From the UHGV virus genome UHGV-0240017: 64,000 bases of DNA, one strand, 5' to 3'. Below, in pieces: positions 61,519-63,831 of the stretch (within the stretch, counting starts at the first letter, position 1; each line of letters starts with the position of its first letter). A program made the position numbers and the translations under genes. The notes below the pieces were generated by a model, which had not been told where the DNA came from, ran no database searches, and worked only from the letters and a program-made list of their open reading frames with translations. The stretch is from a virus.

Positions 61519-63831
61519 TCACTCGTCGTCAAAAACCTCTTCTTCGTCTTCATCTTCTTCGTCATCTCCTGCCCTCTCCGATTTCTTAACGTATTGTACT
61601 TCTGCTAATTCCTTATACAGCTCGTCTTCTTCCTCGACTCTATCGTAGAAATCTGATAACAGTCTCATCCTATTCTTATCCATCATGAACACACCTAAGC
61701 ATTCAAGAATGTGATAATACGGTTCAACCGTAGAGAAAGCAGTACGACGGATATCTGCGATATCGATCAGTTCTTTAGGAATACCGTAGTTTTCCACCAA
61801 ATGCTCTGGTAGAATCAACGTTTTATATTTACGGAAATTTGTCTCCTCAAACCACGCCGATGCACCGTTCTTGATAATCGGATCTTCGATACTGTCAATC
61901 CATTCTTTAATCTTCGTTTTGTTTTCCAACGTTACCGGAAGTTTCACAGCATCGTAGGGCGGTTCTTCCAAATAACCAAACTTCGGACCAAAGATAGCAT
62001 TATACATTCGGTGGTAATGGTAGTTCTTTTCATCCTTCTCGTTATAAGCGCTACGTTCCTTAATGTTAGTCGTTTTCAAATACCCTGGATTCCCAGAACG
62101 AATAGAATCCATAATCGTGTGTTCGATTTGGGCAACCTTTTCCAGCAACGGAATGATTTCGATCTGATCACCACGGGCAACAACTTCACATAACCCTTTG
62201 ATGGTGTTCTTAAACTCCTTCATGATAATCGGAGGAATGTTAGATGTACGTAAAGACACACCTTTTACTTCCAGCTCGGGATCTTTTTTCAGCTGGCCTT
62301 CCTGTCCGGTAATCAATGAGAAGTAATGTTTTGCTTTAGTGGTTAATGCAAACGAATCGAACTTAAATTCGTTCTTCATTGCATACAGGAACAAACGCTC
62401 CTTCGCCACACCGATGTTTGCTGACATGCTCGCCATCAAATGTCGTAAGTGCTGTGTCGCAATATAGATCATCGCATTGGAAACACGGGTCGCTACTTCA
62501 CCGTAATGTTTACCAGTGTACCAGATTGCCCACCATTGCGCAGTCATCATTGTAGAGTCAGTATCAGACACTACACCTACACGACGAACCACATCCGGCA
62601 TTCGGGCAATATTGATCGGTAAATTTTTCGTGGTAAGAATATTGCGAATCAGTAGTGCGTATTTACCGATCGTTTTCTGTAAGAACAACGCGGAACGAAT
62701 TAGTTCTTTATAGCCATCCTGCTGATCCCACGGCAAAGGTTTTTTATTACCGTCAAGTTTCTTAACGTCACTGAACGCTTTACCCATCGGTACTACGTCG
62801 GTACGGAACTGTGAGATAATAATCTGCATATCACCATCGATGGTCTTCTCAGCAGCAACCCAGTCTGTATCAGTCCAGCCCTCAGTATCAACGCGCACAT
62901 CAGGGGTAATCAATGCGCCAATAAAGTCGCGCATGAACTTATCGTTGTATTTCGCCAGGTGGAAAAAATCACCCATGTAAACAAACGCGGCACGCGTCAA
63001 CGGTGATACATTACTAACGTAATGCTCAACGAACTCCATCCCCGCTTCGTTCTTAAAGTAGAAATCGGCAGAATAATGAATAACCTCCATCACCTCTTCT
63101 ACCGACGGGTAATGAAGCTCATACGTCTCCATGCATTTCTTAAAGCTATTCCAATCGGTTAAGGTACCGATAGATAAGAAATGATCGATAATACGCGACG
63201 GGGTATCGTAATGTCGATTACCGCCTAATAAACGTTCATTCCCAGCATTGCCGAACGAAGTTGCAGTACGACAAGTGGACGTCAGTGTGGAGTGTGAGGA
63301 CTGATTAAAAAGGATCGTGAACGGGGAGGAAAATGCGCCCGACATACCGTTGTTCAGCGTCTTGACCGCATTCTGTTCGTTCTTTTTGTTGATATTTAAT
63401 ACTACATTGCCCGCTGCTGCTGCTGCAAACATTTCCTTTTTTACCGCATCACGTTTCGCCACGTTAGCTGCTGTGAATTCAGACAACTTAGAACGTTTGA
63501 CGTGTTCGGGCAAATAAAAAGTTAACGAAGGTGCGGAGATAATCTGTTTGTCAATGACGGTTTTAAATAACTTATCGACGGTTGTGTATTTTTCCTCACG
63601 ATCGCCCGTTTTCTGATTACGCACCCACATCTTACACACAGGTGATTCAGTTGCTAACTCACCGCCAGGGGCAATAAGAGCATCAACTTCCTGACGACAA
63701 AACTCTAAAGGGTATTTTTGTGCTGTCACGTTATGAATGTATAACGCGACTTGTTCGCGGTAGGCATCGTTGACATCGATATCACGATGGTATTCATCTA
63801 CCGTTAAACGAAAAGGAGAAATGTATTCCAC
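61519..63831 (-). CDS. putative DNA polymerase catalytic-domain protein (DTDS motif) with polyacidic C-terminal tail
   Basis: VGVVSDTDS resembles family-B motif C; KTLNNGMSG loosely resembles motif B; other motifs not convincingly placed; GTG start with AGAGG SD. Confidence 0.45.
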   Translation of the reverse strand: MEYISPFRLTVDEYHRDIDVNDAYREQVALYIHNVTAQKYPLEFCRQEVDALIAPGGELATESPVCKMWVRNQKTGDREEKYTTVDKLFKTVIDKQIISAPSLTFYLPEHVKRSKLSEFTAANVAKRDAVKKEMFAAAAAGNVVLNINKKNEQNAVKTLNNGMSGAFSSPFTILFNQSSHSTLTSTCRTATSFGNAGNERLLGGNRHYDTPSRIIDHFLSIGTLTDWNSFKKCMETYELHYPSVEEVMEVIHYSADFYFKNEAGMEFVEHYVSNVSPLTRAAFVYMGDFFHLAKYNDKFMRDFIGALITPDVRVDTEGWTDTDWVAAEKTIDGDMQIIISQFRTDVVPMGKAFSDVKKLDGNKKPLPWDQQDGYKELIRSALFLQKTIGKYALLIRNILTTKNLPINIARMPDVVRRVGVVSDTDSTMMTAQWWAIWYTGKHYGEVATRVSNAMIYIATQHLRHLMASMSANIGVAKERLFLYAMKNEFKFDSFALTTKAKHYFSLITGQEGQLKKDPELEVKGVSLRTSNIPPIIMKEFKNTIKGLCEVVARGDQIEIIPLLEKVAQIEHTIMDSIRSGNPGYLKTTNIKERSAYNEKDEKNYHYHRMYNAIFGPKFGYLEEPPYDAVKLPVTLENKTKIKEWIDSIEDPIIKNGASAWFEETNFRKYKTLILPEHLVENYGIPKELIDIADIRRTAFSTVEPYYHILECLGVFMMDKNRMRLLSDFYDRVEEEDELYKELAEVQYVKKSERAGDDEEDEDEEEVFDDE

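Follow-up and report, generated by a model that had tools for sequence, protein, structure and literature searches.

On the sequence evidence, the minus-strand ORF 61519..63831 in the 64,000-nucleotide stretch of viral DNA analyzed here (the window) comes from a phiKZ-related, SPN3US-like jumbo phage and encodes one half, comprising fingers, palm, and thumb, of its replicative family-B DNA polymerase. The motif A missing from this 770-aa protein lies near the C-terminus of a second, 593-aa protein, so that the catalytic motifs appear to be divided between two separately translated chains without an intein. We consider it highly probable that the two chains constitute a single family-B polymerase with a composite active site, in which an insert makes the long gap between motifs B and C and an acidic tail probably mimics DNA or offers an electrostatic handle. 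The ORF is ordinary as such, since phiKZ-like jumbo phages have this divergent family-B enzyme as their standard replicative polymerase, one that is already in Pfam and has been discussed since 2011; the point of note is the location of motif A.

A divergent family-B polymerase that begins at the fingers

The 770-aa protein, the predicted fingers-palm-thumb subunit of the split polymerase, is the orthologue of phiKZ gp50, phage EL ORF021, and SEGD1 gp017; it starts with GTG, as does its SEGD1 orthologue, and GAGG lies 6 nt upstream. It matched the Pfam family PF20286 (divDNApol) with an E value of 2.7e-279 and 928.7 bits (cut-off, 25.7), aa 11-729 aligning with profile positions 3-705 of 705 and hence with the full length of the model, and it also matched PHROG 2927 ("DNA polymerase"). 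In a Foldseek search with an AlphaFold model of the 770-aa chain, all 50 matches listed were to RB69/T4 gp43 (best E value, 7e-5; probability, 1.00), and structure comparison showed the palm-fingers-thumb fold of family-B polymerases to be present. The original prediction had suggested a highly divergent polymerase palm and had named structure prediction as a check; because of the PF20286, PHROG 2927, and Foldseek matches, a polymerase palm fold can be assigned, and the model is indeed closest to RB69/T4 gp43. Primer-dependent, template-directed DNA synthesis would be the activity of the family.

A search with the family profile (E ≤ 0.001) returned 1533 clusters at 50% identity. The representatives of the best 150 of these 1533 clusters were ~700-860 aa long, save a truncated entry and another that carries a fused 5' nuclease, and nearly all of them begin at the same point, no more than ~35 residues from the N-terminus. 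A fused 3'-5' exonuclease half was found in none of these best 150 representatives, and the sole N-terminal fusion among them was to the T4 RNase H-type 5' nuclease. The 770-aa protein likewise begins right before the fingers, the exonuclease being encoded by a separate gene at 32482-34263 on the plus strand. When PDB sequences were searched with the single polymerase-chain sequence there was no match, and profile searches were needed; NCBIfam had no model for either the 770-aa or the 593-aa chain.

Motifs B and C are canonical in order and separated by a helical insert

Conservation was assessed with 65 diverse homologues of the 770-aa protein (34-79% identity). Residues R127, K131, K157, N161, S164, G165, D423, D425, K501, and Y503 were invariant in 65/65, as were T424 and S426. 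The original prediction had picked out KTLNNGMSG and VGVVSDTDS as candidate motifs B and C, and because of this invariance neither is a chance match. Motif B (K157-TLN-N161-GM-S164-G165; aa 157-165; 63337-63363, minus strand) closes the fingers, two long antiparallel helices that also carry R127-x3-K131 (aa 115-166; 63334..63489, minus strand) and that are assigned by invariance, profile matches, and the AF2 model, in which they span aa 115-139 and 143-166. The mapping of this region onto RB69 gp43 rests on three things: aa ~92-170 aligned with the Pol zeta fingers and motif B in the A1 profile (E = 0.0024), aa 94-189 gave a sub-threshold match to PF00136, and the spacing of R127/K131 and of the motif B residues is that of RB69 R482/K486 and K560/N564/Y567/G568. 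With hhalign, the polymerase profile against the single RB69 sequence recovered the KxY region alone (Prob 20%). At the position of RB69 Tyr567 all 65 homologues have Ser164, a deviation from the family-B pattern K-x3-N-S-x-Y-G.

The best-conserved stretch of the protein is the palm helix that follows motif B (SHSTLTSTCR...NERLLGGNRHY; aa 179-208; 63208..63297, minus strand; a helix at aa 179-203 in the AF2 model), with H180, L183, T184, C187, R188, N195, N198, E199, R206, H207, and Y208 invariant; its position probably corresponds to RB69 ATAITTFGQ. Motif C, VGVVS-D423-T-D425-S (aa 418-426; 62554..62580, minus strand), would provide metal-binding carboxylates of the palm; S422-D-T-D-S-T427 is invariant in 65/65 homologues and identical to the core of RB69 YGDTDS. 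In the AF2 model of the single subunit it is the least confident part of the palm, with a local pLDDT of only 81 and no hairpin. Further downstream, invariance and alignment identify K499-A-K501-H-Y503 (62323..62337, minus strand) as the equivalent of KKRY, the primer-terminus motif of family B, K501 and Y503 being aligned with RB69 K706 and Y708 by both HMMER and hhalign. The thumb region follows (aa ~534-729; 61645..62232, minus strand) and extends to aa 729, where the PF20286 match stops. Its last residues form the conserved family C-terminal motif NRMRLLSDFY (61645-61674, minus strand), at which most family members end; Kazlauskas & Venclovas 2011 (PMC3201878) noted TRLISDFY as a possible clamp-binding-like motif.

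The order R-x3-K, motif B, motif C, KxY is collinear with that of RB69. The motif order had been called unusual, but B before C is the canonical A-B-C order, and it is the spacing that is unusual: motif C lies 266 residues downstream of motif B (~280 had been estimated), and G165 and D423 are 258 residues apart, compared with 53 for RB69 G568 and D621. Apart from this gap and from the short fingers, in which the R-to-K distance is 30 aa instead of the 78 of RB69, the spacing is RB69-like. The long distance from motif B to motif C is due to a family-specific, multihelical insert of ~200 aa (aa 209-404; 62620..63207, minus strand) that separates the helix after motif B from the strand of motif C and is modeled as ten helices spanning aa 211-398 with pLDDT mostly 90-98; the same helical insert was described by Iyer et al. 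2021 (PMC7824862). The insert contains D288, invariant in 65/65 homologues within FVYMGDFFHLAKYN, which may reach the active site.

Motif A is found on the partner subunit

As the original prediction observed, no clear motif A is evident in the 770-aa ORF: D-x-x-SLYPS is absent from it, and across the 65 homologues the polymerase half has no invariant Asp before the fingers. What that reading missed is that motif A is encoded elsewhere in the window, at 32482..34263 on the plus strand, ~29 kb from the polymerase ORF and on the opposite strand. We attribute its absence from the 770-aa ORF to a split polymerase with motif A on the 593-aa chain.

This partner subunit, an orthologue of phiKZ gp82, EL gp51, and 201phi2-1 gp144, comprises an N-terminal domain, a 3'-5' exonuclease, and a first palm segment, as judged from PHROG, hhalign, and Foldseek matches. 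It matched PHROG 3011 ("DNA polymerase"); hhalign aligned its aa 142-526 with RB69 gp43 residues 106-431 (Prob 97.1%, E = 6e-11), and Foldseek matched the 593-aa chain to RB69 with an E value of 8e-13. Exo motifs I-III of family-B polymerases are complete, in the form of VYD150VE152T (32923-32940), WN260HEFD264 (33256-33273), and Y393NIFD397 (33658-33672; all plus strand), with five of the six residues invariant and N260 at least 90% conserved. Motif A follows near the C-terminus, as RGQTA-D504-A-D506-LTQA-Y511-P512-S...N519...ETT (33976..34056, plus strand). D504, D506, Y511, and P512 were invariant in 36/36 exonuclease-half homologues, N519 was at least 90% conserved, and the distant 201phi2-1 gp144 (~33% identity) keeps the motif as ADLDIVSTYPN. 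A single collinear hhalign alignment covers RB69 from Exo I through motif A, placing D506 on D411 and Y511 on Y416 of RB69 D411-LTSL-Y416-PS...N424, and HMMER gave the same register; the motif A stretch alone had a weak HMMER score and is significant only within the collinear alignment. The two proteins occur in 300 phage records each, their counts per genus being almost the same, and a Pfam search found no intein or Hint domain in either of them.

It is unlikely, in our assessment, that the 770-aa protein is self-contained, with a degenerate motif A in cis at D226 (EL D229) or D288 and with the 593-aa protein as an only loosely associated proofreading exonuclease. Such an arrangement would agree with Kazlauskas & Venclovas 2011 (PMC3201878), who put both catalytic aspartates of the EL enzyme (D229 and D398) in the polymerase chain, and with Iyer et al. 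2021 (PMC7824862), who called the exonuclease stand-alone, and D288 is invariant in 65/65 homologues. However, D226 is Asp in only 55/65 homologues (Asn in 8, Glu in 1, and His in 1), and both candidates fall in helical segments modeled with pLDDT of at least 94 (D226 between helices), not at the end of a β-strand, and after the fingers rather than before them. Conservation in the case of D226, and secondary structure and position in the case of both, thus make either an unlikely motif A, and it would go unexplained why a "pure exonuclease" keeps a perfect motif A (D-x4-YPS...N) invariant. We also considered SAPSLTFYLP (aa 98-107) as a motif A remnant and rejected it, since it aligns with the sPNG..Y hairpin that comes after motif A in Pol zeta.

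The original prediction had also allowed for a rearranged palm or a different nucleotidyltransferase. That the 770-aa protein is another nucleotidyltransferase, a primase, or an enzyme with a permuted palm, and not the replicative polymerase, seems to us most improbable. DTD-like motifs do occur in other enzymes, these phages have no recognizable primase, and Iyer et al. 2021 (PMC7824862) speculated about a primpol activity. Yet sequence and fold searches returned family-B replicative polymerases only, with nothing pointing to a different nucleotidyltransferase; the collinearity with RB69 speaks against a permuted palm; the partner chain has kept both the steric-gate Tyr (Y511) and a full proofreading exonuclease; and the one relative with an N-terminal T4 RNase H-type 5' nuclease is what would be expected of a lagging-strand replicase.

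A probable composite active site

Because motif A and motifs B and C belong to different chains, the active site is most likely composite, a polymerase active site built noncovalently from two chains that we infer to assemble physically. The 593-aa chain would supply the N-terminal domain, the proofreading 3'-5' exonuclease, and the first strand and helix of the palm, with D506 as a putative metal ligand and Y511 as the steric-gate tyrosine, whereas the 770-aa chain would supply the triphosphate-binding fingers (R127, K131, K157, and N161), the second set of palm carboxylates (D423 and D425), the primer-terminus KxY, and the thumb. The break between the chains maps to RB69 residues ~431-455 and is flanked by ~140 extra residues, at the C-terminus of the exonuclease half and the N-terminus of the polymerase half, which probably form the interface. 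In the AF2 model of the 593-aa chain alone, pLDDT was below 50 for aa 456-530, the motif A segment; that the motif A and motif C segments are both of low confidence in single-chain models suggests that the two halves depend on each other. When we aligned homologues to a fused exonuclease-plus-polymerase construct (1189 aa), MAFFT misplaced exonuclease homologues on the polymerase region at 10-14% identity, and that alignment was discarded.

The sequence evidence indicates that the polymerase half is not catalytically complete alone: the aspartate of motif A and the tyrosine of the steric gate stand in the last part of the "exonuclease" protein. This reading conflicts with the explicit published assignment of the aspartates and with the descriptions of a stand-alone exonuclease. 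Because both chains would be needed, it matters for expressing, assaying, inhibiting, or modeling the enzyme; annotation is affected too, since "DNA polymerase" applies to both genes. The term "split subunit DNA polymerase" reportedly goes back to Cornelissen et al. in 2012. In phiKZ, gp50 and gp82 have both been handled as "DNA polymerase" (bioRxiv 10.1101/2024.03.24.586471).

Splitting the palm between unlinked genes may itself be functional and no accident of history: the halves would be synthesized in the cytoplasm, be imported separately into the phage nucleus, and be active only where both meet, and the acidic tail of the SPN3US-like clade, as a DNA mimic or handle, would keep the lone catalytic half off DNA or recruit it to the replisome. 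We regard this as quite unlikely.

A clade-specific acidic tail

Beyond the end of the Pfam model and the RLLSDFY motif conserved at the family's C-terminus, the 770-aa protein carries an extension of ~41 aa (aa 730-770; 61522..61644, minus strand) that ends in the polyacidic run DDEEDEDEEEVFDDE (aa 756-770; 61522-61566, minus strand). The run noticed in the original prediction is acidic at 13/15 positions, for which the expectation given the composition of the protein is ~1e-6, and no other ORF among the 47 in the window exceeds 9/15. It is predicted to be disordered, with pLDDT below 50. The tail occurs only in the SPN3US/Erwinia-phage clade: in relatives at or above ~72% identity, 14-18 of the last 30 residues are acidic, those at 66-69% identity have a weaker tail, and in most others it is absent. 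To see it as a protein-interaction handle, as had been proposed, is a reasonable guess; most likely, it would attract a replisome partner electrostatically or by mimicking DNA.

One candidate for such a partner is the SF2 helicase encoded at 40343-42052 on the minus strand, which ends in ...RRFRRRK. In T7, gp4 and gp2.5 bind the polymerase through acidic tails; if the tail here worked analogously, it would be a specific docking peptide for this basic-tailed helicase and would couple the two enzymes. In the window the polymerase alone has an acidic tail, and K/R make up 10 of the last 20 residues of the helicase. We nevertheless think such docking improbable. The basic helicase tail is conserved down to ~36% identity and is present in phages such as EarlPhillipIV, for which the nearest polymerase cluster representative, listed under Erwinia phage Phobos, lacks an acidic tail; since the helicase tail persists where the acidic tail is missing, the two do not covary, and the basic tail is more simply explained as a nucleic-acid contact.

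Genomic neighborhood

Upstream of the polymerase gene, at 63933..63998 on the minus strand, lie the last 21 codons of an SH3DP gene (PF20287), the rest of which is past the end of the window. Their translation, AALAARGFNDVEIEIIENAAG followed by the stop, agrees at every residue with the end of the 137-aa PF20287 product encoded upstream of the identical polymerase on public contigs, and an SH3DP neighbor is also present in SEGD1 and PCH45, making it a conserved small neighbor of these polymerases. The window also encodes divDnaB, RNAP subunits, and a phiKZ-type capsid protein. A neighboring 615-aa gene (58169-60016) was considered as a chimallin, and it had no match among PDB sequences. As a separate observation, a conserved sequence upstream of the polymerase start (TTTTTTCACGT...CTTATAGCYGAG) is also present in SEGD1; it is not repeated before other genes in the window.

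Comparison with known systems

The closest systems are the PF20286 group 1 polymerases of jumbo phages (phiKZ gp50/gp82, EL ORF021/gp51, and SPN3US/SEGD1 gp017), which belong to the same family and share the length and the insert before motif C, the separate exonuclease gene, the upstream SH3DP gene, and divDnaB and multisubunit RNAPs nearby; SEGD1 gp017 is 80% identical to the 770-aa protein. Nothing essential differs, except that the ~41-aa acidic extension found here and in close relatives is absent from most of the family.

RB69/T4 gp43 is alike in its fold and in the order of Exo I-III, motif A, R-x3-K, motif B, DTDS, and KxY. It differs in being one chain, where here there are two, broken at about RB69 residues 431-455; in addition, the fingers here are much shorter, there are ~205 extra residues between motifs B and C, Tyr567 is replaced by the invariant Ser164, no sliding clamp is known, and the C-terminus is different.

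A family-B replicase on two cistrons is likewise found in the Aeromonas T4-like phages 25 and 44RR, and the gp43A and gp43B products of phage 25 copurify and are active without splicing (PMC2988022). In those phages, however, the cistrons are adjacent and the split is recent, being due to a mobile element or an untranslated spacer, whereas here the genes are ~29 kb apart on opposite strands. The archaeal split polymerase of Methanothermobacter, PolB1/PolB2, also consists of two polypeptides with the catalytic motifs divided between them; it belongs to another lineage, and its break is further downstream, before motif C.

The tail invites comparison with the acidic C-terminal tails of T7 gp4 and gp2.5, T4 gp32, and E. 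coli SSB, which are disordered, have an aromatic residue near the end, and dock on basic patches of their partners or compete with single-stranded DNA. The C-terminus here is similarly acidic and disordered, with an aromatic residue near its end (...EEEVFDDE), but there the helicase or the SSB bears the tail and the polymerase receives it, whereas here the polymerase is the one with the tail.

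A divergent family-B DNA polymerase in the window

The minus-strand ORF at 61519..63831 encodes a 770-aa protein (the pol chain), with a GTG start preceded by GAGG 6 nt upstream and shared with the orthologue in SEGD1, an SPN3US-like phage. This ORF, VGVVSDTDS (motif C, aa 418-426), KTLNNGMSG (motif B, aa 157-165) and the acidic terminal run DDEEDEDEEEVFDDE (aa 756-770), all described in the original prediction, proved correct on checking. The protein matches PHROG 2927 (“DNA polymerase”), and it gave a sub-threshold match to the classical Pfam family PF00136 at aa 94-189. According to tblastn, 300 phage records contain it, with the best match in SPN3US-like Salmonella phages (80% identity); among the matches listed, the carriers are mostly phiKZ-like, have jumbo-sized genomes of about 210-307 kb, and infect Pseudomonas, Erwinia, Salmonella, Vibrio, Serratia and other hosts. 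Searching 1.8 billion representative proteins with a profile built from 65 homologues gave matches in 1533 clusters at 50% identity, and an identical protein is present on public metagenome contigs. We concluded that the pol chain is a real, ordinary and already catalogued feature, a family-B polymerase.

AlphaFold2, run on the alignment of 65 sequences, gave a model with a mean pLDDT of 89 and a pTM of 0.85, in which only aa 756-770 had pLDDT <50. All 50 Foldseek matches listed were RB69/T4 gp43 (best E=7e-5, prob 1.00), which identifies the protein as a family-B polymerase and reveals the polymerase palm on which the original prediction had been staked. That prediction had wavered between a divergent polymerase, a rearranged palm and a different nucleotidyltransferase. 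The first is upheld by these fold matches and by the match to Pfam PF20286 (“Divergent Family B DNA polymerase”; E=2.7e-279, aa 11-729); the second is wrong because the motifs run in canonical family-B order, and the third because both sequence and fold are those of a family-B polymerase.

Mapped onto RB69 gp43, the canonical phage replicase, the residues invariant in 65/65 homologues include R127-x3-K131 in the fingers (RB69 R482-x3-K486), K157-x3-N161-x2-S164-G165 in motif B (K560-x3-N564-x2-Y567-G568), D423-T-D425-S in motif C (D621-T-D623-S) and K501-x-Y503 in KxY (K706-x-Y708). The register of the fingers and motif B is backed by HMMER against Pol zeta (E=0.0024), and that of KxY against RB69 by both HMMER and hhalign. 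Motif B ahead of motif C, which had seemed unusual, is the normal order, and the distance between them is 266 residues rather than about 280.

The PF20286 family was discovered by Kazlauskas & Venclovas in 2011 (PMC3201878) and further characterised by Iyer et al. in 2021 (PMC7824862), who described a DxD hairpin preceded by a long multi-helical insert, no fused exonuclease and a small SH3-fold gene upstream. In our model, aa ~209-404 form an all-helical module (pLDDT mostly >90), and this predicted module is the insert of Iyer et al.

Motif A lies in a second gene

No invariant Asp was found ahead of the fingers in the pol chain across the 65 homologues. A PHROG scan gave a second “DNA polymerase” gene in the window, at 32368..34263 (plus strand), the true start of which is the ATG at 32482, yielding a 593-aa product (the exo chain) of the same length as a 95%-identical public homologue. 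Each of 36 homologues (29-80% identity) retains D150 and E152 of Exo I, D264 of Exo II, and Y393 and D397 of Exo III, and 90% or more of them keep N260 of Exo II. They also share an invariant C-terminal D504-A-D506-LTQA-Y511-P512-S, beyond which N519 is conserved in 90% or more.

With hhalign, the exo chain gave a single collinear alignment to RB69 gp43 from 106 to 431 (Prob 97.1%, E=6e-11), which ends with FRGQTADADLTQAYPSATNMMNQSRETTL opposite a 28-residue stretch and pairs D506 with D411, Y511 with Y416 and N519 with N424; HMMER gave the same register, and Foldseek matched the exo-chain model to RB69 with E=8e-13. The protein of 201phi2-1 annotated as equivalent to phiKZ gp82 and EL gp51, gp144, still has motif A as ADLDIVSTYPN. 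Searches for the pol and exo chains found 300 phage records each, the counts by genus are nearly identical, and Pfam found no intein domain in either. A fused exonuclease half was found in none of the best 150 of the 1533 cluster representatives, nearly all of which share one starting point, about 35 residues or fewer from the N-terminus.

A composite polymerase site as the simplest reading

According to Kazlauskas & Venclovas (PMC3201878), the polymerase chain of phage EL carries both catalytic aspartates, D229 and D398. By residue mapping, EL D398 corresponds to pol-chain D425 and EL D229 to D226, which is Asp in only 55/65 family members and lies between two insert helices in the AlphaFold2 model. 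D288 is invariant, yet its segment is likewise helical and follows the fingers.

Judged from the sequences, the enzyme is most simply read as two chains that together form a composite polymerase site, a view that conflicts with the published placement of both aspartates. The exo chain would supply motif A, with its metal ligand and steric-gate Tyr, and the pol chain would supply the fingers, motif C, KxY and the thumb. The break between the chains maps to RB69 ~431 to ~455 and is padded by about 67 aa at the exo-chain C-terminus and about 96 aa at the pol-chain N-terminus, residues that are likely to form the interface. Modelled alone, the exo chain is confident at aa 1-455 and has pLDDT <50 at aa 456-530, the motif A segment, and in the pol-chain model palm confidence is lowest around motif C (81), where no beta hairpin is formed; the weakness of both regions in single-chain models would be indirectly consistent with a composite site. 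Motif A in trans would be the one point of some interest, revising the older assignment and implying that neither chain alone is a polymerase. Later authors wrote of a “split subunit DNA polymerase” (PMC5105663) and listed phiKZ gp50 and gp82 together as DNA polymerase, so a composite enzyme may already be taken for granted among specialists.

A disordered acidic C-terminal tail

At pol-chain aa 723-729 lies ...RLLSDFY, the conserved C-terminus of the family; the possibility that such a motif is clamp-binding-like was raised in 2011 (PMC3201878). The protein extends 41 residues further, and 13 of its last 15 residues are acidic, a run with an expectation of about 1e-6 that is unique among the window's 47 ORFs and is predicted by AlphaFold2 to be disordered. 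Relatives at ~72% identity or more (SPN3US and Erwinia phages) have comparable tails that vary in sequence and stay acidic; at 66-69% identity the tails weaken, and most of the family has none, with a few independent recurrences. Such a pattern is characteristic of a disordered appendage under selection for its composition. Acidic tails are known on T7 gp4 and gp2.5, T4 gp32 and SSB, and by analogy a putative partner-docking or DNA-mimic role is plausible.

As a partner we considered the SF2-type DNA helicase (PHROG 16; 40343-42052, minus strand), which has a strongly basic end, ...SKFSRKSFKGVSRRFRRRK (...RRFRRRK). This idea fails because the basic tail, kept in homologues down to about 36% identity, has a phyletic range far exceeding the acidic-tail clade. 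Many helicase homologues reach about 910 aa through LAGLIDADG/homing-endonuclease inteins (PF14528, PF05203/4), which the window's copy lacks.

Aligned to the exo chain (32482-34263), gp144 of Pseudomonas phage 201phi2-1 (L003) carries about 120 inserted residues between Exo II and Exo III, which hold a long acidic stretch of their own, EEDEEEEDDLEEDEEGED...DDDDD; acidic low-complexity segments therefore recur at different places in the two-chain enzyme. A 63-aa ORF at 61374-61565 (minus strand) overlaps the last 47 nt of the pol gene, the acidic-tail codons, in another frame, and every public contig with the pol locus has it annotated as a gene.

Gene surroundings and the phage lineage

Two relatives carry fusions: in a 967-aa protein (P0346) the N-terminus of the polymerase half is joined to a T4 RNase H-type 5'-3' exonuclease (PF02739 and PF09293), which ties the PF20286 polymerase to primer removal, and an 858-aa protein (P0439) has a DUF4326 domain at its C-terminus. 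Upstream of the pol start, the intergenic region 63832-63890 (minus strand) contains TTTTTTCACGT...CTTATAGCCGAG, conserved with SEGD1 together with the GTG start; the pol coding regions of the two are too diverged for a megablast match (about 80% protein identity). No other gene in the window was found to have this motif upstream, and the conserved region may serve as a gene-specific promoter or regulatory site. In phage PCH45, a PF20287 SH3DP gene lies directly upstream of the polymerase (L009:936-1352). A core “SH3 family protein” of this Serratia jumbo phage, gp198, is reported to be non-essential by Tn-seq (bioRxiv 10.64898/2025.12.19.695335); if gp198 is that SH3DP, the neighbour is dispensable for replication.

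Three genes from the pol gene, a large, conserved 615-aa PHROG 8316 protein (58169-60016, minus strand) adjoins the RNAP beta-subunit gene (56585-58084, minus strand). Neither PDB sequences nor Pfam gave a match to it, and it could be a nuclear-shell protein because the PCH45 chimallin gene occupies such a position. Long stop-free plus-strand ORFs of 395-752 aa (58076-60025, 4218-6476, 19283-20593 and 20787-21974) lie antisense to almost the full length of well-supported minus-strand genes, namely those for the PHROG 8316 protein, the major capsid protein and two internal head proteins, and are probably shadow ORFs arising from codon bias. The internal head proteins (19310-20602 and 20658-21929, minus strand) are adjacent paralogues, both PHROG 2497, with near-identical C-termini (...GLNGYL.AGIGAYEKSK).

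Among isolated phages, even the closest share only about 73% DNA identity and 80% polymerase protein identity. Public read-archive assemblies, as well as genome submissions for Salmonella and E. coli, nevertheless often contain proteins that are identical or 95-99% identical. Together these results suggest a lineage of SPN3US-like enterobacterial jumbo phages that has no close cultured member in the phage collection searched.

Comparison with gp43 polymerases

A functional precedent is Aeromonas phage 25, in which the split gp43A and gp43B co-purify and are active (PMC2988022). The pol chain shares its motif order with RB69 gp43, but the R-to-K landmark spacing in the fingers is 30 aa, compared with 78 in RB69, the motif B tyrosine of RB69 is replaced by Ser, and motifs B and C are separated by 258 aa, whereas they are separated by 53 in RB69.
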